A stretch of DNA of 43,740 nucleotides from a virus (Duplodnaviria; Caudoviricetes). How positions within the stretch are numbered: the stretch's first letter is position 1; the number at the start of each line of letters is the position of its first letter. The stretch spans positions 1 through 43,740 of IMG/VR virus record IMGVR_UViG_3300020045_005328; one strand, 5' to 3'. Of this stretch, positions 1-41,135 are shown in pieces. The notes below the pieces were generated by a model, which was given only the letters and a program-made list of their open reading frames with translations, was not told where the DNA came from and made no database searches. A program made the position numbers and the translations under genes.

Positions 1-105
1 CAGCCCGGTGTATCTGACCATCCCGGAAACCGGGACGGAAATCGAAGTGCGCGGGAACTATCCTCAGCGGTGAGACGCGAAAGCCTAAAACTTCAAGAAA
101 GCGAC
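1..105. repeat. Direct repeat identical to 40977..41081 (circularisation point of a 40,976-bp genome)
   Basis: 105 nt exact match by direct comparison; first mismatch is 106 (t) vs 41082 (a). Joining 40976 to 1 restores the terL-to-portal order and completes the solo cassette. Confidence 0.9.
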
Positions 106-279
106 TGGCGGCGGCTAGAAGAACTGGCCGCCGCCACTGCTTCAAACTACTCAGGAAAACCAAGCTGGCGGCGGATGGTGCTACGCATCGCTCGCGGAGA
201 AATAACCGTTCGAGAAACCAAGCGCGTCGCCCGGCGCTCGAACAAATGTATGGGCGTGACAATCTATCAAAAGTTGTAA
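70..279 (+). CDS. Small ribbon-helix-helix-like DNA-binding protein; second gene of the solo cassette. The last 11 codons come from the interrupted target gene.
   Basis: GTG start overlaps the TGA of the upstream 92-aa ORF (GTGA). RRESLKL-(ESDWRRLEELA)-(SWRRMVLRIARG) fits a strand-helix-helix pattern. Crossover AAC at 241..243 is in frame. Confidence 0.55.
   Translation: MRRESLKLQESDWRRLEELAAATASNYSGKPSWRRMVLRIARGEITVRETKRVARRSNKCMGVTIYQKL
235..243 (-). other. Right junction (R box) of the solo gene cassette
   Basis: CGCTCGAAC is the exact reverse complement of GTTCGAGCG at 40644..40652, the far arm of the attC at 40557..40650. Confidence 0.75.
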
Positions 280-343: not shown

Positions 344-2215
344 GTGAAGGAACTATTTGAGTCCGCACACAGCATTTTGACGGGCCGCAGTGTTTGGGAG
401 AACAAGCAACGCCTGTTCTACCAGATGCGGCATGATGGTATCCGGCGTTCCAAGAAACCTTTCCCGACAGCTTCCGACGGTCATTACCCACAGATTGATA
501 TGGCGATCCGAAAGGCGAAACCTTTCTGGATGGGGCAGGTGACGAGCGGGGACAAGTTGGCGGTGTTCACCAGTCTCAAGCCGAACGACATGGCGGCTTT
601 TTCGGATTCAGCAGCGGATTACTTCGATTTCATTCTCACCCAAAAGACGCAGTTCCTTCGCAAGCTGCGCGTGGCCGTGGATGAAATGCTATTGCGCGGG
701 CGCGGCATCATCAAAGTGACGGTCAATCCGTTGGATGACTATTCCGTCCAGGTCGAGGCGATCAACCCCCTCTTCCTTATCATGCCGCAGATGGCCGATG
801 ATTTCGCGGATGCAGATGAGTGGGTGCATGTGAAGCACATGACGGTGGCGGCTTACAAGCGTCTGGATGCGCGTTACGATACCAAGCCGGAAACCGTCGC
901 GCGGATTCGGGGTAGTGAGAACTTTGAGAATTTCAGCACGATCACAGAGGACAAGCGCACGCGCGAAGGCATCACGCACACGTCCAACCCAGACAACATC
1001 ATCATTTGGGAGCATTGGCGGAAGTCGCAAGGCGGGCACACAATCCACACTTACAGCCCGCACGCGCCTGAGTTGCCATTGCGCAAACCTCACGGGAATC
1101 CTTTCAAGGTGGCTGGCAAATCGTCCTGCCCGTTCTTCTCGTTCCCGATGGAAGTTAAAGACGAAGGTTGGTATTCGCCGCGCGGATTGGGCGAACTGCT
1201 TGCGCCGGTGGAGCAATACCTGACGAAACTTTGGAACGAGAAAGCGGACGCGATGACGTTCGCCAACAGACCGCTTTACACGGGAGACAAGGAGATTCAG
1301 AACCCGGCAAACTATCGTTGGGCACCGGGCGAATACATTCCCGGCAACATCCGTGGTGTTCAACAAGGTGCGCCACCGTTCAACTTCGATCAGGAGATCA
1401 TGTTCGCGCGCGGCATCGGTGAGCTTCAAGCGCAGACACCGGACTTTGGCATCACGCAGGAGGGTCAAGGCGGCGGCGGCAAAGCGCGGACGGCAGCGGA
1501 GAACTATCGCATTGCAGCACTGACGCAAGCCGGCACGAACGACAACGCGACCATCTTCCGTGAAAAGCTGGCGGAAGTGTACCGGCATATCTGGGGCATG
1601 ATCCTGCAATTCAAGCCCAAGGATTTCACTTATTTCGCCGCGGGCGAAGTGGGTTCATTGCCGGAACAAGCGTTGCATGATGCCTACCTGATTGCGCCGG
1701 ACGGTTCGCCGGACGGATGGAACAGGCAACAGCGGTTTCAAAAGGCGGTTTCGCTAATTCAGATGTTCACCGGCAATCCGAACGTGAACATGGAGGTATT
1801 GACCCGGAACGCGCTGGCGGCGGAGGACGGACGGCTCGCGCAATCGGCGTTCATCCCGTCGAACCTCAAAGGGGCAATCGAGGCCGAGGACGAGGCGCAC
1901 GAGATTGCGATTCTCAAGGAAGGTTTCCCGGCAGTGGTGACCCCGGGCGAAGATCACGCGACCCGTATCAAGATGCTTTTGGGTTGGTTGCAGAAGCAGG
2001 CCATGACCGGTGCGCCGCTCGACCCCATCGCCAAGCAGCGGGTGCAGGAACACTTGGCAACCCACTACCAGTATTTGCAGCAGACACAGCCGCAGGCGGC
2101 GAAACAGCTGGCAATGGCGATCAACCAGCAGGAACAGCCGAGCAACGTGGCGCAGATGCCATCTGCTGGCGGACCGCCCGTGCAGGCGCAACCGGAACAA
2201 GTAGGAATGATATGA
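344..2215 (+). CDS. Portal protein (podovirus type)
   Basis: 623 aa; follows terL on the circular map and precedes scaffold and capsid genes; motifs YSPRGLGELLAPVEQYL and RTAAE; Q/P-rich C-terminus typical of P22/T7-like portals. Confidence 0.8.
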   Translation: MKELFESAHSILTGRSVWENKQRLFYQMRHDGIRRSKKPFPTASDGHYPQIDMAIRKAKPFWMGQVTSGDKLAVFTSLKPNDMAAFSDSAADYFDFILTQKTQFLRKLRVAVDEMLLRGRGIIKVTVNPLDDYSVQVEAINPLFLIMPQMADDFADADEWVHVKHMTVAAYKRLDARYDTKPETVARIRGSENFENFSTITEDKRTREGITHTSNPDNIIIWEHWRKSQGGHTIHTYSPHAPELPLRKPHGNPFKVAGKSSCPFFSFPMEVKDEGWYSPRGLGELLAPVEQYLTKLWNEKADAMTFANRPLYTGDKEIQNPANYRWAPGEYIPGNIRGVQQGAPPFNFDQEIMFARGIGELQAQTPDFGITQEGQGGGGKARTAAENYRIAALTQAGTNDNATIFREKLAEVYRHIWGMILQFKPKDFTYFAAGEVGSLPEQALHDAYLIAPDGSPDGWNRQQRFQKAVSLIQMFTGNPNVNMEVLTRNALAAEDGRLAQSAFIPSNLKGAIEAEDEAHEIAILKEGFPAVVTPGEDHATRIKMLLGWLQKQAMTGAPLDPIAKQRVQEHLATHYQYLQQTQPQAAKQLAMAINQQEQPSNVAQMPSAGGPPVQAQPEQVGMI

Positions 2216-8088: not shown

Positions 8089-8681
<593 letters not shown>

Positions 8682-30182: not shown

Positions 30183-30262
30183 ACCACAACGCTACAATTT
30201 TACGGCCAACGTCCGCGCTGCCCAGCGAACCGCGGGTTCGCAGCAGCGCGATGGTTAGATGC
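30147..30262 (-). other. attC6 (left arm ambiguous)
   Basis: Right arm GGGTTCGCAGCAGC-GCGATG-GTTAGATGC (R box 30254..30262). Left arm is either GGCCAAC at 30204 (57-bp hairpin) or the degenerate GTGGCCTAC...GCTCAGCGAC at 30147. Confidence 0.65.
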
Positions 30263-30406
30263 GACGGGTGGAGCGCAGAATTGGGGTGCGACAAAGAATG
30301 CGAGCCGCAAGAATGGGCAGGCCGATACGGAGGAAAGAACCTCTGCAAACAATGCGGGCAACGAAGCGATGATGATGCTCGTGCGTGGAGATGGCTCACA
30401 AGTTGA
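30179..30406 (+). CDS. Cassette ORF, small Cys-rich (zinc-binding) protein
   Basis: CDG...GC...LCKQCG; ATG at 30179 overlaps the upstream stop. Confidence 0.5.
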   Translation: MNHNATILRPTSALPSEPRVRSSAMVRCDGWSAELGCDKECEPQEWAGRYGGKNLCKQCGQRSDDDARAWRWLTS

Positions 30407-30412
30407 GAAAGC

Positions 30413-30534
30413 ATCTAACGACTGACTTGAGGCAAGACGCCGGAAACGAGCATGGAACGCAAAATGGATACTCAAATTGAAATCAACGATGGAGCGCAAA
30501 ACGGGGCGTCTTTGCCTCCAAGGAATGGTTCGGC
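30413..30534 (-). other. attC5 (122 bp)
   Basis: ATCTAAC-GACTGA-CTTGAGGCAAGACGCC ... GGCGTCtTTGCCTCcAAG-GAATG-GTTCGGC; two extra bases on the right arm. Confidence 0.85.
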
Positions 30535-31039
30535 TTTCCCGCCCGTCTTGGACGTGTGCTGCGGAAGTAGGATGTTCTGGTTCGACCGGAATAATCCCGC
30601 CGCGCTGTTCTGCGATAAGCGCGAAGAAAAGCACGTCCTCTGTGACGGCCGCGACTTGGAAATCTCGCCAGACGTGAAGTGCGACTTCACCGCCCTGCCG
30701 TTCCCTGACAACACATTCTTTCTGGTCGTGTTCGATCCTCCGCACATGAACTCGCTGGGCGCGAATAGCTGGCTCGCCAAGAAATACGGGCGACTACTTG
30801 GTGACTGGCACGACGAACTCGCGGAAGGCTTTCGGGAATGTCTGCGCGTCCTCAAACCAAACGGGACGCTCGTGTTCAAGTGGAACACAACGGATGTGCC
30901 GCTCGATGAAGTGCTGGCACTCGCTCCAATCCCGCCGCTCTTCGGTCATACGACCGGGAGGCAGGCGAAAACAGTGTGGGCGACATTCTTGAAGCCGAAC
31001 GGAGAGTTCAGGCGCACAGACCCGCCGTTGAAACCATGA
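30452..31039 (+). CDS. SAM-dependent (DNA) methyltransferase, cassette-borne
   Basis: VLDVCCGSRMFWFD (motif I), VVFDPPH (catalytic), ECLRVLKPNGTLVFKW; start at 30452 or 30464, inside the attC5 loop. Confidence 0.85.
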   Translation: MERKMDTQIEINDGAQNGASLPPRNGSAFPPVLDVCCGSRMFWFDRNNPAALFCDKREEKHVLCDGRDLEISPDVKCDFTALPFPDNTFFLVVFDPPHMNSLGANSWLAKKYGRLLGDWHDELAEGFRECLRVLKPNGTLVFKWNTTDVPLDEVLALAPIPPLFGHTTGRQAKTVWATFLKPNGEFRRTDPPLKP

Positions 31040-31128
31040 CGACACTCGAACAATCCAAGCCTGACGGCGAAGCCCGCGACTCCGTGCTGCGAATCGGGGC
31101 TGTGTCGTCCTGCAACGATTTGTTACCC
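30994..31128 (-). other. attC4 (135 bp)
   Basis: GCCGAAC-GGAGA-GTTCAGGCGCACAGACCCG ... CGGGGCTGTGtCGtCCTGcAAC-GATTT-GTTACCC; three extra bases on the right arm. Confidence 0.85.
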
Positions 31129-32076
31129 GGCCAATTCGTGAACATCATAAACGGAGACTGCCGAACCGTGCTGAAAGAACTCGCGCCCGAATCCATCCAG
31201 TGCGTCGTGACAAGCCCTCCGTATTGGGGGCTGCGGGACTACGGCCACGCGGACCAAATCGGGCAGGAAGAAACGCCTGACGCCTACGTGGAAACCATGC
31301 GTCAAGTGTTTGCGGAAATCTGGCGCGTGCTGAAAGATGACGGCACGGCATGGCTGAACCTCGGAGACTCCTACGCTCGAAACGGTGGAACGCCCGGTGG
31401 CGGAAACCGTGAACTCATGCACATGGAAGGAACTCAATCGCGCATGTGCAAAATCCCGGCCGGCGCCGGCCTGAAAGTAAAAGACCTTGTTGGTATTCCG
31501 TGGCTGGTCGCGCTCGCGCTGCGTGCCGATGGCTGGTATCTCCGCCAAGACATCATCTGGCACAAGCCGTCAACCATGCCGGAAAGCGTAACTGACCGAT
31601 GCACCAAGGCGCACGAATACATCTTCCTGCTAACCAAGTCTCAGAAATACTACTTCGACAACGAAGCCATCAAAGAGCCTTCGGACTATCCCGATGACGA
31701 CCGGAAAGGGCGCTCCTATGACCATCACAAATCCGCGCCGCCGGTAGAACGAAACGGCGTGAGGTCGGGCAACTATCTCGACTCTGGTCGAAGCTCCTAC
31801 GCGATGAGGAATAAGCGCAGCGTGTGGAGCGTGACAAACGCGGGATACTCAGAAGCGCACTTTGCGACGTTCCCGCCAGACCTGATAAAACCCTGCATCC
31901 TCGCCGGCACGAAGCCGGGCGACGTGGTGCTCGATCCTTTCGGTGGTAGCGGAACGACCGGCATGGTCGCTCTGGAACTCGGTCGCCGGGCTGTTCTCGT
32001 CGAACTGAATCCAGACTACGCGAAATTGTGCGATGAAAGATGCACGACAACCCGAGGGCTACCGCTGGCCGGGTAA
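31036..32076 (+). CDS. N4-cytosine/N6-adenine DNA methyltransferase (beta class), cassette-borne
   Basis: VTSPPYWGLRDY, WLNLGDSY, IIWHKP, HFATFPPDLIKPCI, VLDPFGGSGTT; ATG at 31036 overlaps the previous stop. Confidence 0.92.
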   Translation: MTTLEQSKPDGEARDSVLRIGAVSSCNDLLPGQFVNIINGDCRTVLKELAPESIQCVVTSPPYWGLRDYGHADQIGQEETPDAYVETMRQVFAEIWRVLKDDGTAWLNLGDSYARNGGTPGGGNRELMHMEGTQSRMCKIPAGAGLKVKDLVGIPWLVALALRADGWYLRQDIIWHKPSTMPESVTDRCTKAHEYIFLLTKSQKYYFDNEAIKEPSDYPDDDRKGRSYDHHKSAPPVERNGVRSGNYLDSGRSSYAMRNKRSVWSVTNAGYSEAHFATFPPDLIKPCILAGTKPGDVVLDPFGGSGTTGMVALELGRRAVLVELNPDYAKLCDERCTTTRGLPLAG

Positions 32077-32159
32077 CGATAAGTCCAGCCAAGCCGGAAC
32101 GGGACGCGCCGATTGAAACCGCGATGCAATCCGGCTTTGGCTGCGACGACGGGTTGGCA
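32071..32159 (-). other. attC3 (89 bp)
   Basis: GGGTAAC-GATAA-GTCCAGCCAAGCCGGA ... TCCGGCtTTGGCTGcGAC-GACGG-GTTGGCA. Confidence 0.88.
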
Positions 32160-32681
32160 GACGAAAAGAAAAATATGGACACAGAACACCAAAAGCTAAA
32201 TGCGTGGATCGCGCTGAATGTCACGAGGACGCTGCGCCGCATCTCTGATGCTGAATATGCCGTCGTGTGCGCCATCTGTGAGGAAGCGAACAAAGAACCG
32301 CACCCGAACCTGATGCTCACGCTGCCGTATCGCCACGAAGGACACTGCCCGAAATACACCACAGACTCCGTCGCCGCGATGGTGGTTCTGGAATACTGCA
32401 TGAAGAATCTCGACCGGCTGACTGGTCGCACTAACTTTCAAATCGTGGTGCTTTATGACGAAGGAAACAAAGCGCCATTCTGCGTGATGACTGACTCAAG
32501 AAATGCCGACGACGACAGCATACACGTCGAAAACTGTGCGTCGGCGGAAACGATGGAACTGGCAATCTGCCGCTTCTGTAAAAACCTGCATACCGGCAAG
32601 GGCGTGGCCGAGTCTGCCAACGCCGCGCTATGCGACGGCACGGTCGAACACCAACCAACTACCGAAGCTAAAAACCTATGA
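32124..32681 (+). CDS. Cassette ORF, phage ABA-sandwich-like protein
   Basis: LNAWIA...CPKYTTDSVAAMVVLE...AETMELAIC resembles the P-x-Y-S/T-T-D...A-x-T-x-x-LAIC pattern of that family; start 32124 (in attC loop) or 32175. Confidence 0.6.
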   Translation: MQSGFGCDDGLADEKKNMDTEHQKLNAWIALNVTRTLRRISDAEYAVVCAICEEANKEPHPNLMLTLPYRHEGHCPKYTTDSVAAMVVLEYCMKNLDRLTGRTNFQIVVLYDEGNKAPFCVMTDSRNADDDSIHVENCASAETMELAICRFCKNLHTGKGVAESANAALCDGTVEHQPTTEAKNL

Positions 32682-32817
32682 GACTACGAGGACATCAACT
32701 GGACGGATTCAACGCCTCATTAAAATCCGGCGACACAGCGAAAGCACATCAGGAACTCCAAACGGCGTGCGCCAGAGCCGAGGGCATAGTGCCGTTCGCA
32801 TCAGCAAGTGGTTCGGC
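32615..32817 (-). other. attC2 (203 bp, long coding loop)
   Basis: TGCCAAC-GCCGC-GCTATGCGACGGCAC ... GTGCCGtTCGCATcAGC-AAGTG-GTTCGGC. Confidence 0.85.
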
Positions 32818-33118
32818 CACGGCCATAGACCTGAATCGGTATGAGCAGGCCAGAGCAGAGCGCCAGCGGTGGACACTCGCCCAAAGCGTGGAAGCTCAGG
32901 AGGAACGAATCGCCGCGCACTACACAGCCTTCGCGCACCTCGCGATGCAACTGCGAGAACTGACAGAGGCGAGAAAGCACGGCTGCACAACCGACATAAA
33001 CGACACGATCCGCTTTCTGGCTGGCAAAATCCGCGAAGGCCATCTGATGGAGTTTGGCATCCAACTGGAGTGGCCGAACGTGGAGCTAAACGACCGGCGC
33101 AACCAACCTAAATCATGA
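32678..33118 (+). CDS. Cassette ORF, hypothetical helical protein
   Basis: 146 aa; ATGA overlaps at both ends; starts in the attC2 loop and ends in the attC1 loop. Confidence 0.7.
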   Translation: MRLRGHQLDGFNASLKSGDTAKAHQELQTACARAEGIVPFASASGSATAIDLNRYEQARAERQRWTLAQSVEAQEERIAAHYTAFAHLAMQLRELTEARKHGCTTDINDTIRFLAGKIREGHLMEFGIQLEWPNVELNDRRNQPKS

Positions 33119-33355
33119 GCGAAGCCAAACTCAAAGCCTGTCCGTGGTGCGGGTCTAAACCAAAAACCACAAGCCTGTCACGCGACTGCTGGCAAACATA
33201 CTGCGCGAATCTTGAATGCGAAGCCGAAATATCCGTGATGGGGATAACAAGCTACCAATCCCTGCGTATCTGGAACGAGAGGGCAGGCGACCGCGAACCA
33301 GAGGCCGTCCCAAACGCCGGGGCTATAGCCGGTTCGTTTCAGCGAATGGTTGGAC
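33073..33355 (-). other. attC1 (283 bp; loop encodes a whole zinc-ribbon domain)
   Basis: GCCGAAC-GTGGA-GCTAAACGACCGGC ... GCCGGtTCGTTTcAGC-GAATG-GTTGGAC. Confidence 0.82.
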
Positions 33356-33510
33356 AGAGCGACCCGGGGCGATGGATAAAGAGAGTCCATGGCAAATACT
33401 CACGCAATGGAGACCTGCTGACGATACGAACAGCCGAGGCTCTCATTGAAGAACTACAAGACACCATCGCCGCGCTGTCCAACAATTTTTCCACAACTCC
33501 TGTTCGCTGA
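33115..33510 (+). CDS. Cassette ORF with N-terminal Lar-like (restriction alleviation) zinc-ribbon domain
   Basis: MSEAKLKACPWCGS...YCANLEC...RIWNERA fits the Lar-family LKPCPFCG...C..C...WN-x-R pattern. Confidence 0.65.
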   Translation: MSEAKLKACPWCGSKPKTTSLSRDCWQTYCANLECEAEISVMGITSYQSLRIWNERAGDREPEAVPNAGAIAGSFQRMVGQSDPGRWIKRVHGKYSRNGDLLTIRTAEALIEELQDTIAALSNNFSTTPVR

Positions 33511-33512
33511 AT
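33475..33512 (-). other. attI-like site
   Basis: Minus strand reads GGAGTTGTGGAAAAATT-GTTGGACAG: an R box with A-rich spacer and no palindromic partner arm, abutting the intI start. CTGTCCAAC (33475..33483) complements GTTGGACAG (33349..33357). Confidence 0.7.
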
Positions 33513-34469
33513 ATGAAACTGGAAATCGCCATTGAAAAGATGCGGGACACGATACGGCTCAGGCATTTGTCTCTTGCCACCGAGCAGAGTTACATCGGTT
33601 GGCTCGGGCGGTTTTCACGATTTGTGGCGGAACGGTGTCCGGTGGGTTCACCGGAGCAGAAGATGGAGGCGTTTTTGACTCAACTCGCCAAACAGGATGT
33701 GTCCGCTTCCACCCAGAACGGTGCGTTCTGTGCGTTGCTGTTCTTTTATCGCGAAGTGATGAAGGTGGAAGTCGGCAGGGTGGATTCGTTGCACGCCAAG
33801 AAGCCGGCGTTTCTGCGGTTTGCGCCGGAAATGGATGAGGTTCGCCAGTTGATCGCGGGTCTGCAGGACGTGGGCGGGTATCCGACGCGGCTGATCGTGA
33901 AGCTGATTTACGGCTGCGGACTGCGCGTGTCCGAGCCTTTGAATCTGCGCGTGAAGGATGTGTTGATGTCGGAATCCAAGCTGGTGATCCGGGGCGCGAA
34001 GGGCGGCAAGGATCGGTTTGTTTCGCTGCCGTGTTCGCTTGTGCTGGAATTGACGGCGCAACTGGCGTTCGCAAAGTGCGTGGGCGAACAGGATCGGTTG
34101 AACCGCGTGCCGGTGGCGTTACCTAGATTGCTGGCAACGAAGTATCCGCACTGGCAGTTCTCGACGAAGTGGGCGTTTCTCTTTCCTGCGCGGGCAACCT
34201 GTAAACATCCCCGATCCGGCGTGACGGTGCGCTATCGCTGTCACGAGGCCAACGTGCAGCGGTGCGTGAGGAACGCGGCCCGTCCGCTGGGGCTGGACAT
34301 CACGCCGCATCATCTGCGGCACGCCTACGCCACGCATTGCCTGAACGCGGGGCAGAATCCACGCGCGATCCAGCAGGCGATGGGACACAGCCAGCTTGAA
34401 ACCACGATGGGCTATCTCCATGCGGAGGCCATGAGTGTGAAAAGTCCGATGGAATATCAACCGGCATGA
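33513..34469 (+). CDS. intI: Integron integrase (IntI-type tyrosine recombinase)
   Basis: IRLRHLSLATEQSYIGW, VSASTQNGAFCALLFFY, YGCGLRVSE (R), GAKGGKDR (K), TPHHLRHAYATH (H-x-x-R), MGHSQLETTMGY (H, Y), VKSP. It also has the IntI-specific insertion VALPRLLATKYP...WAFLFPA...HPRSG...R. Confidence 0.92.
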   Translation: MKLEIAIEKMRDTIRLRHLSLATEQSYIGWLGRFSRFVAERCPVGSPEQKMEAFLTQLAKQDVSASTQNGAFCALLFFYREVMKVEVGRVDSLHAKKPAFLRFAPEMDEVRQLIAGLQDVGGYPTRLIVKLIYGCGLRVSEPLNLRVKDVLMSESKLVIRGAKGGKDRFVSLPCSLVLELTAQLAFAKCVGEQDRLNRVPVALPRLLATKYPHWQFSTKWAFLFPARATCKHPRSGVTVRYRCHEANVQRCVRNAARPLGLDITPHHLRHAYATHCLNAGQNPRAIQQAMGHSQLETTMGYLHAEAMSVKSPMEYQPA

Positions 34470-36677: not shown

Positions 36678-36848
36678 ATGACAGCACACATATTGGCGGC
36701 GGAATTGGAATGCAAATGGACGGAACTGAGCCGCGAAAGCCCGGTCAACCGGATGCTCGCACTCGAAAGCCTGCTGCTCAATTTCCAGCATGAGATTGTG
36801 ACTCAGACGGGGGATTTTCTGCTGAACGGACCGGAGGTCGGGAATTGA
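36678..36848 (+). CDS. Hypothetical protein
   Basis: Own translation MTAHILAAELECKW...LLNGPEVGN, 56 aa. Confidence 0.45.
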   Translation: MTAHILAAELECKWTELSRESPVNRMLALESLLLNFQHEIVTQTGDFLLNGPEVGN

Positions 36849-37017
36849 AACGGCGGCAGATTACGGCTGGGGTGCGCCGGGAGAAGGCGCGCGGACCGAA
36901 CGGGGGCGGGCGTTCAATGAACTGGGAACTTCGTTGCGGAGAGAAGTCGTCGGTGGGATCGAGTCTGGACGAACTGGAACGGCGGCTGGCGGCATTGTCT
37001 CCAAAGGGAAAGACAAC

Positions 37018-37245
37018 ATGAACAGATCAGAACGGCGCAAACTCCTGGCGGAGTTGAGCGCAACCGAACCGGAACGGCTGGACGCCCAGGCGGACACATG
37101 GCTGGCTCAACATCAAAACGCCGAGCCCAAGGAACAGTTCCGGCTTGCGCTGCTGATCGCATCCGCACGGCTGGCGGCGAGCGATCTGCGGGCGATGCGT
37201 GCGGCGCGGCATCGGCTGGCTTATTCACAGGGTTATTCACAATGA
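37018..37245 (+). CDS. Hypothetical protein (homologue at 43153..43374)
   Basis: MNRSERRKLLAE...; frame is conserved in the diverged second copy. Confidence 0.6.
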   Translation: MNRSERRKLLAELSATEPERLDAQADTWLAQHQNAEPKEQFRLALLIASARLAASDLRAMRAARHRLAYSQGYSQ

Positions 37246-37462: not shown

Positions 37463-38257
37463 ATGACGATAGATTGGAAAAGAGTTGCCGGGACGATGCG
37501 GGCGGAGTTGGATCGGGCCGCATTGAACGAGCGTCCCCGCATGGTGTTGGCGGTGCTGATCAAGGCCACGCTGATGCGGCAGCGGACGGCGGTGGTGTTG
37601 CCGGATCGGGAGGCGCTGTGCGGGTTGCTGGGGATCGCCAAGCAGCACATGCGCGGCGTGTGGCGGGAGATCGAGGACGCGCGCATTGCGACGTTCCGGG
37701 CGGTGGGAGACGGTTGGGAGTGTGTGATGAACGCCGATTCAAGCCAGTGGGCTTGCGAATGGGTGTTTTCGCGTGAACAGATGTCCACGTTTCTGGACTT
37801 CCTGGATCGCGCCCCGGGGCAGTCGCAGGGCAGCTTGCTCGCGCCTGAACCCAACATCACGCGTACTCGCGGCGAACTGGCTGCGGAAAATCTGAGTAAC
37901 CAAAATGGTTACTCAAATCCGCCGCCAGTAACCAAGTTGGTTACTCAGCCTGCCCGCCAAGCTCAACCGTTCGGGAAGTCCACGCCTATTAATGCTTTAA
38001 AGGTTCAAGGTTCTAAGCCTTATACAAGGCTTTCAAACCTTGAACCTTTAACGGAGCCCGGATTGATGCAGCGATGTGAGCAACTGTTTGGAAAGTCCAT
38101 CATGGTGACTTACGGGGCAAACTGGCGGCTGCGTGCGCGTGAGAATCCCGGCAAACTGGATCGGGTGTTGAATGATACGGTGTGCGCGATGAAGGAAGGG
38201 CGCATCAAGACCATTCCGGCGGCGTATGCAAATGACACATGGGGGAGATTCAAATGA
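37463..38257 (+). CDS. Putative replication initiator (lambda-O-like layout)
   Basis: N-terminal wHTH-like region, central linker with DNA palindromes and an AT-rich hairpin, small C-terminal domain (GRIKTIPAAY); position before the terminase genes. Confidence 0.5.
   Translation: MTIDWKRVAGTMRAELDRAALNERPRMVLAVLIKATLMRQRTAVVLPDREALCGLLGIAKQHMRGVWREIEDARIATFRAVGDGWECVMNADSSQWACEWVFSREQMSTFLDFLDRAPGQSQGSLLAPEPNITRTRGELAAENLSNQNGYSNPPPVTKLVTQPARQAQPFGKSTPINALKVQGSKPYTRLSNLEPLTEPGLMQRCEQLFGKSIMVTYGANWRLRARENPGKLDRVLNDTVCAMKEGRIKTIPAAYANDTWGRFK
37893..38051. repeat. Candidate replication origin: two related palindromes plus an AT-rich long inverted repeat
   Basis: TGAGTAACCA-aaa-TGGTTACTCA (37893..37915); AGTAACCAA-g-TTGGTTACT (37927..37945); TTAAAGGTTCAAGGTT...AACCTTGAACCTTTAA (37997..38051). 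Confidence 0.55.
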
Positions 38258-38439: not shown

Positions 38440-38884
38440 AAAGCAACGGCAGAGAAAAAAAAGGGCGGCGTTGGTCAAGGCTGGGCTTGCGGGTCGGCGC
38501 GGCGCGCGGAAAAGCGTGACGATGGCCGTTGTGGAGCGGGTTGGCATCCGCATTTCCAAGGGATTACCGCTGGATTATGCGCTTGCATTGGAGGATCAGG
38601 ACATCAGCGTGGATGCCTTCCATAAGGCCTTGGCTAGAGAACCCAAATTGTCCACCCACCTGAACCGTTTCAAGGCAAAATTCATCGAGGAAAGCGTCAT
38701 TCGTCTCTCAGAGGGCGAGATGGCGGACCTGAAATGGCTGCTGGTGCGGCGGCATCCGGACATTTTTGCGATGCCGAGCGAGAAGGCGGAAGCGCCGAAC
38801 GCGGACAAGGTGGCGGACGGGTTGCAGGATTTGCTGAACCGTAGCAGTGAACTGGCGCGGTTGAAAGCGGGGCTTGGATCGTGA
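38432..38884 (+). CDS. Terminase small subunit (putative)
   Basis: 150 aa directly upstream of and overlapping terL; KWLLVRRHPD motif. Confidence 0.6.
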   Translation: MTKKQRQRKKRAALVKAGLAGRRGARKSVTMAVVERVGIRISKGLPLDYALALEDQDISVDAFHKALAREPKLSTHLNRFKAKFIEESVIRLSEGEMADLKWLLVRRHPDIFAMPSEKAEAPNADKVADGLQDLLNRSSELARLKAGLGS

Positions 38885-40380
38885 AGGACATCGAGGCCAC
38901 GGCGGAATATCTGGCAACACCGAGCCATTACGCGAAGGCGTATCTCGGATTCAGCCTGCATCCCAAGCAGGCGCAGGTGTTGGACGACCTGTTTTGCAAA
39001 CCCAAGCAACGCGTGGCTTTTTTGTGCGGTAATGAGGTGGGCAAGACATCGCGCGTGGCGGTGTCGGCCATCCTTTTTGCGTTGCACCAGTTGAAATCGC
39101 GGGTGCAGATGACAAGCGGCTCGGATCGCCAGTTGAAGGAGCAGTTGATCCCGAACCTTAAGCGTGTGGCGCATCGTTACCGGCAGTTCGGATGGGAGTT
39201 TCTGGATCGGTCCATAAAAATAAACGGGATCAACCAGTTCCTCGCGTATGCGGCGCGGGACGAGGGCACGTTTCAGGGTTTCCACGAGGAAAGCGAAAAC
39301 GAGTCGAAAATAGGGCAACTCATCATCGTGGACGAGGCGGCGGCGGTGCGGGACGAGATCATAGGCGCGGCGGAGGATCGGTGCAATCCGACATGGCTGC
39401 TCATCATGGGCAGTCCGCTCGACCCCACCGGCAAGTTTTACAGCATGACGCGGGAGTTGAGCGCGTTCTACTCATGCCATCGGTTGAGCAAGCTGGATTG
39501 CACCACGGACAAGGTATGGAAAGGCGGCAAGGGCTGGCTGGATGCGGACGATGTGGCGCGTACGATCGCCAAGAACTGCGGTATACCGATGGATGTGGCG
39601 TTGACCATCGTGCGCACGGGCGAGCATCACGGGCAGATCAAAGACCCGCTGACCCTTTCCAGCGTGTTTGCGGAGTTTGCCAGCTTTGTCGAGAACGCGC
39701 TGTTGACCCTGACGGAATATCAGAAGGCGGAGGACAATCCGCCGAACTTCGATCCGAGCCAGGACAAGCACATTTTCTGCGACTTTGCCGGCGGTCGGGC
39801 CAAGAACGTGTGTGCGGTGCGGGTGGGCAATCGCGTCTGGATAGAAAAGAAGTGGGTTGAACCGAACGAGATGACGGCGGTGGGCGAGTTCATCCACCTG
39901 TTTAAACGATTGCAGCAGGAACACGGGTTTGTGGGCGAGGAAATCAGCGGGGACGGTGACGGGCTTGGCGGGCCGATGGTGCGGCGGATTCAAGAGATGG
40001 GTTGGGCGATCAACGACTTTCATGGGGGCAGCGCGGCGCGGTTCAACGAGCGGTATCAGGACGCATGGACCGAGGCGTGGTGCGAAGGCGCGAACCGGAT
40101 CAAGCAATGCAACATCATTCTGCCAAAGGATCAAGAGTTCCGGGGGCAGGCCCTGGCGCGCAAGACCAAGTTCATCAGCAGCGGCAAGCTGAAACTCGAG
40201 ACGAAGGAGGACATGCGCCGGCGCAACATCCAGAGTCCCGACGAGGCGGACGCGATCTTCTGCGCGATGATGCCTGCACCGCTGGCGCGGAGCATCCAGT
40301 TTGGGCAGAGCAAAAGCGCGAACTGGCGGGAGATGATGGAGGAAGTGAACACAGGCGCAACGCCGACGTTCTTTCAATAA
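38881..40380 (+). CDS. terL: Terminase large subunit
   Basis: LHPKQAQ, Walker A GNEVGKT, Walker B LIIVDEAA, MGSP, nuclease motifs CDFAGG, DGDGLGG and SPDEADA. Confidence 0.92.
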   Translation: MKDIEATAEYLATPSHYAKAYLGFSLHPKQAQVLDDLFCKPKQRVAFLCGNEVGKTSRVAVSAILFALHQLKSRVQMTSGSDRQLKEQLIPNLKRVAHRYRQFGWEFLDRSIKINGINQFLAYAARDEGTFQGFHEESENESKIGQLIIVDEAAAVRDEIIGAAEDRCNPTWLLIMGSPLDPTGKFYSMTRELSAFYSCHRLSKLDCTTDKVWKGGKGWLDADDVARTIAKNCGIPMDVALTIVRTGEHHGQIKDPLTLSSVFAEFASFVENALLTLTEYQKAEDNPPNFDPSQDKHIFCDFAGGRAKNVCAVRVGNRVWIEKKWVEPNEMTAVGEFIHLFKRLQQEHGFVGEEISGDGDGLGGPMVRRIQEMGWAINDFHGGSAARFNERYQDAWTEAWCEGANRIKQCNIILPKDQEFRGQALARKTKFISSGKLKLETKEDMRRRNIQSPDEADAIFCAMMPAPLARSIQFGQSKSANWREMMEEVNTGATPTFFQ

Positions 40381-40386
40381 ACAAGT

Positions 40387-40617
40387 ATGAAAATAGAACT
40401 ATTGCAAATGGGATTTGATAAGGCATTTGAACGGATGAAAACAGACCCCGCTTTTCGTGAGAAATACAGATCAAAAACAGATACATGGTGGGCGTGGCAT
40501 CCGGTGCAGTGTGGGGCACTTGGAACAGGGTCGTGGGTTTGGCTGCGTCGAGTCTGGCGGAACTCAGAGGTCAGCGAGCCGGGCGGCCCTGCGCGTCCGA
40601 ACTCGCGGCAGACGTAG
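40387..40617 (+). CDS. Trp-rich small phage gene interrupted by cassette insertion at 40562/40563
   Basis: WWAWHPV...WVWLRRVWRN then continues into attC sequence; the apparent original 3' end (KCMGVTIYQKL*) is at 244..279. Confidence 0.65.
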   Translation: MKIELLQMGFDKAFERMKTDPAFREKYRSKTDTWWAWHPVQCGALGTGSWVWLRRVWRNSEVSEPGGPARPNSRQT

Positions 40618-40650
40618 CCCGCCCGGATTCGCTGCACCGATTTGTTCGAG
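40557..40650 (-). other. Solo attC site (94 bp), same polarity as the array sites
   Basis: GCGGAAC-TCAGA-GGTCAGCGAGCCGGGCGG ... CCGCCCGGAtTCGCTGcACC-GATTT-GTTCGAG; same extra T and C on the right arm. Confidence 0.82.
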
Positions 40651-40692
40651 CGTCCGGTTACAAAATCTCGATGAAAAAAGAACGAAAAACAT

Positions 40693-40721
40693 TTGACAAG
40701 GTAGCTACCTTGTGCGAAACT
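40693..40721 (+). promoter_or_regulatory. Cassette-internal promoter with a perfect 18-bp palindromic operator
   Basis: TTGACA(40693)-N17-GAAACT; ACAAGGTAGCTACCTTGT (40696..40713) is its own reverse complement. Confidence 0.65.
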
Positions 40722-40770
40722 GCTCCCGTGATCGAGATGAACTCGACCACGAAACAAAATAGACGAAACT

Positions 40771-41049
40771 ATGAAAACGAAACTGACCATCAACCACAAC
40801 GGATTCCACGGCTACACATCCTGCTCGCTCGTCGTGGACGGAAACCCCGGAGACCGCGTGCAACTCTCGGAATCTCAAGTCAAAAAGCTCAAGCGCAAGG
40901 CTTGCGGATGCAGCGACTGCAAATGCGGGGAATCACTGCACGCGGCCTGCGAAATCCCCGAACCGTGGATCAACGACAGCCCGGTGTATCTGACCATCCC
41001 GGAAACCGGGACGGAAATCGAAGTGCGCGGGAACTATCCTCAGCGGTGA
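40771..41049 (+). CDS. Solo-cassette gene 1, small Cys-motif protein
   Basis: 92 aa; HNGFH and ACGCSDCKCG motifs; its stop overlaps the GTG of the RHH-like gene. Confidence 0.65.
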   Translation: MKTKLTINHNGFHGYTSCSLVVDGNPGDRVQLSESQVKKLKRKACGCSDCKCGESLHAACEIPEPWINDSPVYLTIPETGTEIEVRGNYPQR

Positions 41050-41135
41050 GACGCGAAAGCCTAAAACTTCAAGAAAGCGACAGGCGGCGGATGGTGCTAC
41101 GCATCGCTCGCGGAGAAGCGCAAACATTGGGGTAA
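41046..41135 (+). pseudogene. Deleted and truncated copy of the RHH-like gene 70..279
   Basis: Lacks 60 bp between the CTGGCGGCGG direct repeats (105..114 / 165..174); homology ends at 41117 (equivalent to 201). Confidence 0.7.

Follow-up and report, generated by a model that had tools for sequence, protein, structure and literature searches.

An integron cassette of 656 bp was found to interrupt a small Trp-rich gene between the terminase and portal genes of a tailed phage, in a contig of 43,740 nt (IMG/VR record IMGVR_UViG_3300020045_005328; the whole record is called the window, and positions refer to it). The anatomy of its attC site, both cassette ends, both halves of the target gene and copies of the cassette beside other neighbours were observed. 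We consider it probable that the cassette entered the gene at an AAC core by integrase-mediated recombination between its attC and an attI-like GTT site, the enzyme being probably the IntI of the phage's own lineage. Mediation by an integron integrase of some kind is very likely, and insertion in place by the own-lineage enzyme appears reasonably likely.

Contig structure and the terL-portal interval

The record is classed as linear, with a CheckV completeness of 65%. The phage is a tailed phage, with a major capsid gene that scored above the cut-off of the N4-gp56 family. The gene for the terminase large subunit (terL, 38881..40380, plus strand) was labeled from its position and a weak PHROG match (phrog_7579, E 0.0014), with relatives in contigs L004-L006, and that for a portal-like protein (344..2215, plus strand) from its position and a weak match to phrog_332 (E 0.0057); the latter lies 3′ of terL in the relatives. 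Homologues of cassette ORF2 (see below) with 46-52% identity in Spartobacteria and Chthoniobacterales assemblies point weakly to Verrucomicrobiota as the presumed host. A query of genome contigs with the portal sequence for a named lysogen gave no confirmed match. Elsewhere in the window, a 31-nt inverted repeat lies within a putative replication gene (37883-37957) and is a candidate origin element, and an AACATCG tandem repeat near an ORF start (8090-8138) is a possible phase-variable tract.

The first-pass annotation had the cassette running across a circular junction, from 40976 to 1. No such junction is present in the record, which is linear: positions 1-105 are repeated exactly at 40977..41081 (plus strand), and the contig then continues elsewhere for 2.66 kb. 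A terminal repeat as the reading of these two copies was dropped, since the contig runs on into different sequence; the repeat was taken as an assembly overlap within the cassette, 40977-41049 duplicating 1-73. The tail of the contig (41082..43740, minus strand) consists of 36 bp of a cassette variant with 60 bp deleted, followed by an inverted segment from a relative, about 2.6 kb long, that is 89% like 33511-33685 and 36828-37243 of the phage itself. It contains a replication gene differing from the phage's own, an HNH gene and a truncated intI. The first 175 bases of this intI are fused to the equivalent of 36828, which corresponds to a 3.1-kb deletion. The tail is probably an assembly or library chimera with a relative, a real variant being the alternative.

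The join of 40976 to 1 itself held up in independent contigs, in which the cassette is continuous across it. In L026, the cassette body is uninterrupted over the join at 92% identity. Three sequencing runs gave the same picture: contigs of runs X1 and X5 carry, after 41090, the letters of window 115 onward, and one record of run X3 spans window 54-214. The X2 contig stops at 41090 and is hence uninformative for this join. Four of the 24 listed runs were examined, all with small word shares, and the phage itself was in none of the four. In all five related contigs showing the gap, terL is followed by portal. Portal comes directly after terL in L004, L005 and L069, which are near-identical to each other and thus not independent, and in L006 and L067 the gap is occupied by one ORF each, coding for about 54 and 113 aa, respectively. 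Since terL adjoins portal in relatives and copies of the cassette are continuous, the join is real despite the linear record, and the placement of the cassette in the terL-portal interval agrees with the neighbours in all five relatives. The gap (window 40381-40562 plus 243-287; L006 and L067) is a variable slot with unrelated small ORFs and ends at a conserved GGGTGGGGAA motif.

An assembly artefact, with contigs of different molecules joined via a common cassette, would have a precedent in this contig, whose extension past 41082 is demonstrably wrong, and two copies may have been collapsed into one in the middle of the cassette. This explanation is nevertheless very improbable, as each junction is embedded in unique sequence (414 and 242 bases deep, at opposite contig ends), both fall at the same AAC, and together they rebuild a conserved gene with no base lost or added, in a position where terL and portal are neighbours in relatives.

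attC site and ends of the cassette

The attC site of the solo cassette lies on the minus strand at 40557..40650. With the minus strand taken as the top strand, it consists of R'' CGCTCGAAC (40650-40644), a 5-bp spacer, L'' GGTGCAGC including an extra base, L' GCTGACC, another 5-bp spacer and R' G|TTCCGC (40563-40557), with the crossover G|TT between 40563 and 40562. The orientation is fixed because the extra base sits in L''. R'', L'', L' and R' boxes, spacers of 5-6 bp and an extrahelical base are the features by which an integron cassette is recognised, and all are present. With a strict attC scan, 4 sites were called in the window, as against none in any of 10 two-base-block shuffles. A SALIN is defined by a single attC with neither another att site nor an integrase gene close by; here, no second attC was called within 7 kb, and intI lies 6.1 kb off in the same genome.

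The R box had been said to find its complement at 231-243, across the join. This was borne out, with 9/9 bases pairing (235-243) and 4 more past one bulge. GTTCGAGCG begins at 40644 and is complemented from 235 onward; the 9-mer is present once per strand in the window, with about 0.17 expected per strand. On the minus strand the cassette start (231..243) reads G|TTCGAGCG, complementary to R''. In place, R' and R'' pair over 4 bases only; with the cassette start restored, the fold energy of the plus strand goes from -25.6 to -36.8 kcal/mol, the native sequence alone being compared. The length of 656 bp was likewise reproduced, as 414 bp on the left (40563..40976) plus 242 bp on the right (1..242). 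In the usual build, genes and attC share a strand, whereas here ORF1 and ORF2 of the cassette are antisense to attC, as in the array of the phage. Inversion by way of two 18-nt inverted arms (230-247 and 40640-40657) was considered and rejected, since other cassette copies end at 243 and the bases that follow belong to the Trp-rich gene.

The interrupted Trp-rich gene

The 5′ part of this accessory gene (40387..40562, plus strand) comprises 58 codons plus AA and has a weak match to phrog_14828. As it stands, it runs into attC and reaches a stop at 40617, giving a 76-aa chimera. The 3′ part (243..279, plus strand) starts with the bases that form, on the minus strand, the attI-like left arm of the target site. 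Two chimeric frames are therefore present, the Trp-rich N-terminal part with an attC-coded tail and ORF2 with the Trp-rich tail. Joining 40387..40562 to 243..279 gave, as claimed, an in-frame protein of 70 aa. The in-frame join alone proves nothing, because the tail at 243-279 is also in frame with ORF2, and the homologues decide.

When only residues 1-59 of the Trp-rich ORF were used as query, a full HMMER search (E ≤ 1e-3) returned 49 homologues. A test had been set beforehand, namely whether these would end in the tail seen in situ. Past the equivalent of residue 59, 23 of the 49 match the strict reconstructed motif [ND][KR]CxG[VAIG]xIYQ, 30 match a looser pattern and 36 contain IYQ, as against 0/49 with the in-situ tail. 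Against the profile of the 49, scores were 97.5 bits for the reconstruction, 73.5 for the ORF found in situ and 72.3 for the N-terminal part. In one homologue (P0052), the first nine tail residues are identical to those of the reconstruction. When compared at the DNA level with an intact phage gene (L129), both halves were in register, with 46/75 and 28/37 bases identical, compared with 18/75 and 10/37 for cassette controls. On these alignments, the cassette splits a conserved gene in its best-conserved motif, and no base has been lost or gained.

The homologues (P0017-P0065) form a widespread family of small proteins with the motif WFAWxPVxxGALxxG and a conserved Cys. None of 33 members matched Pfam, and the PHROGs matched were only those of unknown function. 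With the N-terminal part as query, a word-index protein search gave no candidate and the Atlas no usable match; two viral loci retrieved with it were weak partial matches and were left unused. The 19-base right half of the target site matched one other viral contig only. The empty junction that the first-pass annotation proposed to search for was not seen in close relatives or in the runs; the latter cover the cassette without terL, the Trp-rich gene or portal, and are therefore uninformative on the empty site.

Since both halves of the gene are intact and precise excision would restore the frame, the cassette might be thought to act as a reversible switch that IntI removes whenever the Trp-rich gene is required. 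For IntI1, cassettes inserted in a genome have been shown to be excised precisely, according to the accessible text of bioRxiv 10.1101/2022.09.11.507474. Set against this are the single occurrence of the arrangement, the absence of the Trp-rich gene from the slot in 5/5 relatives and the landing of the cassette at many unrelated sites, and we find such a switch hardly credible.

A different history would have the cassette enter the Trp-rich gene in another phage, the split gene then being imported as a block into the terL-portal slot. The variability of the slot, which is empty in three of the relatives and filled with other small ORFs in two, would allow for this; an intact Trp-rich gene was found at the slot in no relative; and the G+C content of the gene (46%, compared with 57% for the phage) marks it as itself an import. 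However, a broken gene offers little reason to be imported, and the undecayed halves, together with a cassette about 97-98% like the X1 copy, argue for a recent event. We regard import as a block as quite unlikely, and insertion in place remains the preferred reading.

Copies of the cassette in other settings

Contigs of X1, X2 and X3 begin matching at 40560, the left end of the cassette, and the flanks listed for X1 and X2 are unlike each other and unlike the window. At the right end, matches of X1 and L026 end exactly at 243, giving two further flanks. Both limits coincide with the AAC ends of the cassette in the window. The bases after 243 in X1 have the shape of an attC arm (a 5-bp spacer, then an L-like box), and the cassette therefore likely lies in an array there. 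As judged from its flanks, the cassette is found in at least three settings besides the window. The same unit with different neighbours and breakpoints at G|TT is what marks an integron cassette, and this was observed. The copy in L026 (540-1145) has lost most of its attC, has an altered core and is apparently fixed in place.

A search with a degenerate pattern of the cassette end gave 16 viral matches. Nine had the exact 24-base end together with a basic ORF ending KRVARRSN; the other seven were unrelated sequence and were dropped. Among the nine phage records, the scan found an own attC in 5, and 3 of the units stand directly behind another attC. These records (L073, L076-L078, L080-L083 and L085) have a common shell, made up of R box, end motif, palindrome over the promoter and small basic ORF, with varying cargo. 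The palindrome and the type of basic ORF vary together, a pattern suggestive of putative autoregulation. In L083, a solo family copy of 580 bp (about 1938-2518) has a primase-helicase-like gene on one side and terminase-like genes on the other, these labels being assigned by reading; it is a second case beside a packaging module, the cassette being just upstream of the terminase-like genes. In L082 (about 2000-2620), attC is broken, and 40 bases of the adjacent site recur on either flank, which may reflect imprecise insertion or excision.

The cassette DNA had no match in GenBank phages. In 401 genomes of the presumed host phylum (the phylum of G020), the end motif gave 1 match (L128) and the reversed control also gave 1, which is background. 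The L128 match sits in what we take to be a gyrB-like gene.

Cassette contents

A promoter-like stretch is located at 40693..40721 (plus strand), with TTGACA at 40693 overlapping a perfect 18-bp palindrome (40696-40713), a candidate operator; the stretch is conserved in L026. A scan with a consensus promoter did not call it. ORF1 (40771..40976 and on into 1-73, plus strand, antisense to attC) encodes a Cys-rich protein of 92 aa with 26 homologues. Its Cys region has four near-invariant or invariant positions, and its structure was modelled confidently (pLDDT 85). Fold searches with this model gave nothing at E ≤ 0.001 in BFVD, and in the PDB a best Z of 3.3, mostly in beta-grasp-like rows and not significant. 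A Pfam match to eukaryotic metallothionein was ascribed to Cys bias, and metallothionein was rejected as an identity for ORF1.

A second small ORF of the cassette, missed in the first pass, encodes a small basic protein (ORF2, 70..279, plus strand). It has no stop inside the cassette and here borrows the last 11 residues of the Trp-rich gene. Of its 15 homologues, 9 reach RR[AS]N and then diverge, and none has the tail of the ORF2 in the window. The model of ORF2 has helices at 10-22 and 31-41 (pLDDT 67). The nearest named Atlas clusters, TraM and DUF3950 among them, were at 0.90 with low shared-feature counts, and fold searches gave no usable match. A ribbon-helix-helix-like protein is a lead only, taken from the predicted structure. 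The cassette may carry its own putative promoter, which would likely be repressed by ORF2 at the palindrome.

The phage integron and its relatives

The gene intI (33513..34469, plus strand) encodes an integron-type integrase of 318 aa in which the catalytic residues R138, K163, H266, R269, H292 and Y301 are present. The protein aligns to 2A3V, the structure of a Vibrio integron integrase, over 10-304 (E 2.5e-43), with the IntI-specific insertion included. Its score against TIGR02249, 249.2 bits, is below the cut-off of 265, yet this is the best family by far. From its sequence, IntI looks intact. An attI-type site (33483..33497, minus strand) was located 30 bp upstream of intI and is matched over 9 nt by R'' of the first cassette; attI-like sites also lie upstream of intI in 12 other phages with a full intI. 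The array (30204..33483), whose cassettes extend leftwards of attI to 30210, has at least six of them with attC on the minus and genes on the plus strand, which include two methyltransferases, a Lar-like gene and unknowns. Pairing of R'' with the cassette start extends over 9-12 nt in six cassettes (9, 10, 10 and 9 computed; 12 and 9 read from the sequence). Some start codons in the array (30452, 32678 and 33115) fall within attC loops, and the loops have up to 272 bases between the cores.

For comparison, 14 other phage records of the same IntI family were taken whole, plus G015, which is without intI. In 13 of the 14, attC sites were called, and the array sites were on the strand opposite intI. 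Solo cassettes off the array were seen in 3 of the 14, namely in G002 (301 and 269 bp), G003 (880 bp) and G004 (397 bp); the second one in G002 (269 bp) may follow a decayed attC. By inspection, no split gene was callable around these four. The solo cassette of G004 (C1:5755-6152) has its attC opposite to the array strand and is surrounded by a small gene cluster that is likewise reversed. Stretches of G004 (50847-51286) and G011 (642-1375) were excluded as solo cassettes, an L-box-like arm preceding each.

IntI proteins of this family are 55-81% alike across the 12 other phages with the full gene and at most 37% like the IntI of GenBank phages; the family therefore looks phage-resident. Among the 401 genomes sampled from the presumed host phylum, 5 had IntI homologues with 44-56% identity.

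Choice of target site

The core of the target is TTG|TT, as in most attI sites of these phages; the window has 109 TTGTT sites. Among 1538 GTT sites, the target ranked 48 with a matrix built from 7 other attI sites and 66 with one built from 12, that is in the top 3-4%, and the phage's own attI ranked 4 and 2 on the same matrices. Other ectopic sites ranked 1, 5, 174, 233, 383 and 959 on the 7-site matrix, the rank-1 site being favoured by the inclusion of its own phage's attI in the matrix. As far as such ranks can tell, likeness of ectopic targets to attI is a tendency and not a rule.

The GWT expected of an attG site is present at the crossover (G|TT). The motif CRGM, defined for IntI1 only, is absent at +6 to +9, where CCAG stands in register and CAGA one base on. 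CCAG is the out-of-register form, with which IntI1 insertion at one hotspot dropped more than 2 logs in the available part of bioRxiv 10.1101/2022.09.11.507474. The pattern of sites suggests that the phage integrase family may pick secondary sites by their likeness to attI and not by the IntI1 hotspot motif.

Mechanism and source of the integrase

On established integron chemistry, the excised cassette would fold the bottom strand of attC, which is the plus strand of the window. IntI would exchange one strand at AA|C with a double-stranded target, and the junction would then be resolved by replication. The event may have been survived because the Trp-rich gene is accessory and lies in the variable terL-portal slot, and because the cassette genes point in the same direction as the late operon.

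The first-pass annotation took the insertion at a secondary GTT site as independent evidence that the integrase of the phage has been active and can act outside the array. That an integrase acted outside the array stands; activity of the phage's own IntI does not follow, as another integrase or import as a block could explain the same structure. The own IntI is the nearest candidate because the solo cassette has the reversed build of the array and the end motif is at background in the 401 genomes.

The same insertion could have been catalysed in trans by another integron integrase, of a co-infecting phage or of the host chromosome. Enzymes of the same family are encoded in the 14 other phage records, and relatives co-occur in the sample, as the contig tail includes part of the same cassette and the 5′ end of intI from a relative; the host-type homologues (5/401) make a host enzyme available in principle. 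Against these points stands an intact-looking IntI only 6.1 kb away on the same molecule and, for a host enzyme, a cassette end motif not above background in the presumed host phylum. Catalysis in trans is therefore judged unlikely, and action of the own-lineage IntI at the attI-like site is preferred.

It is an evenly balanced proposition that this phage-resident integron family, with its reversed cassettes, uses attI-like secondary sites to seed its own genome routinely with self-promoted cassettes. If true, off-target activity of IntI would be a working route to morons, by which the phage knocks out or retails its own accessory genes, and the split Trp-rich gene would be a clean natural footprint of such seeding. 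It would give one concrete answer to how morons enter the late regions of phages. Because one 41-kb phage genome bears the two target halves, the two cassette ends and a candidate integrase, substrate, product and enzyme are defined for a direct test.

Comparison with known systems

Most demonstrations that cassettes can insert outside att sites come from IntI1 in E. coli; for bacterial genomes, such events have been deduced from the isolated attC sites they contain. The head-gene regions of phages harbour morons, self-promoted accessory units between conserved late genes. The cassette resembles these in being an accessory unit with a putative promoter of its own between conserved late genes; a difference is that its recombination sites can be recognised and the enzyme class named, so the route of acquisition is readable. 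A literature search, thin on subscription journals, returned no report of a phage-resident integron with reversed cassettes and none in which a phage gene is split by a solo cassette.

Phage-borne integrons and CALINs were described by Qi et al. 2023 (PMC9892861). Like the phages in the accessible part of that paper, the present one has intI, attI and attC arrays in a phage genome, with methyltransferase cassettes. The complete integrons reported there represent pieces captured from Vibrio, Shewanella or class 1 integrons, whereas the family of the window looks phage-resident. The screen, as described in that part, required at least two attC sites, and solo cassettes were therefore not sought.

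The accessible text of Loot et al. (bioRxiv 10.1101/2022.09.11.507474) cites a solo aadB cassette that occurs naturally at secondary sites of the plasmids RSF1010 and pRAY. It likewise represents natural secondary-site insertion of one whole cassette into a mobile replicon. In contrast to aadB, the cassette studied here is in a phage and not a plasmid, lies inside a coding sequence, has an apparent, putative promoter of its own and carries no resistance gene.

Secondary-site insertion, isolated cassettes (SALINs) and their precise or imprecise excision are the subject of the same preprint. As in SALINs and attC × attG recombination described in its available portion, a single complete cassette is found at GWT outside an array, with a G|TT crossover and no target duplication. 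The present case differs from these in being natural, in lying in a phage genome with its own IntI, attI and array, and in having cassette genes antisense to attC; unlike attG, its target resembles a weak copy of attI, with the IntI1 hotspot CRGM one base out of register. The feature is thus a secondary-site cassette insertion, and what is new is the phage setting and the completeness of the footprint.
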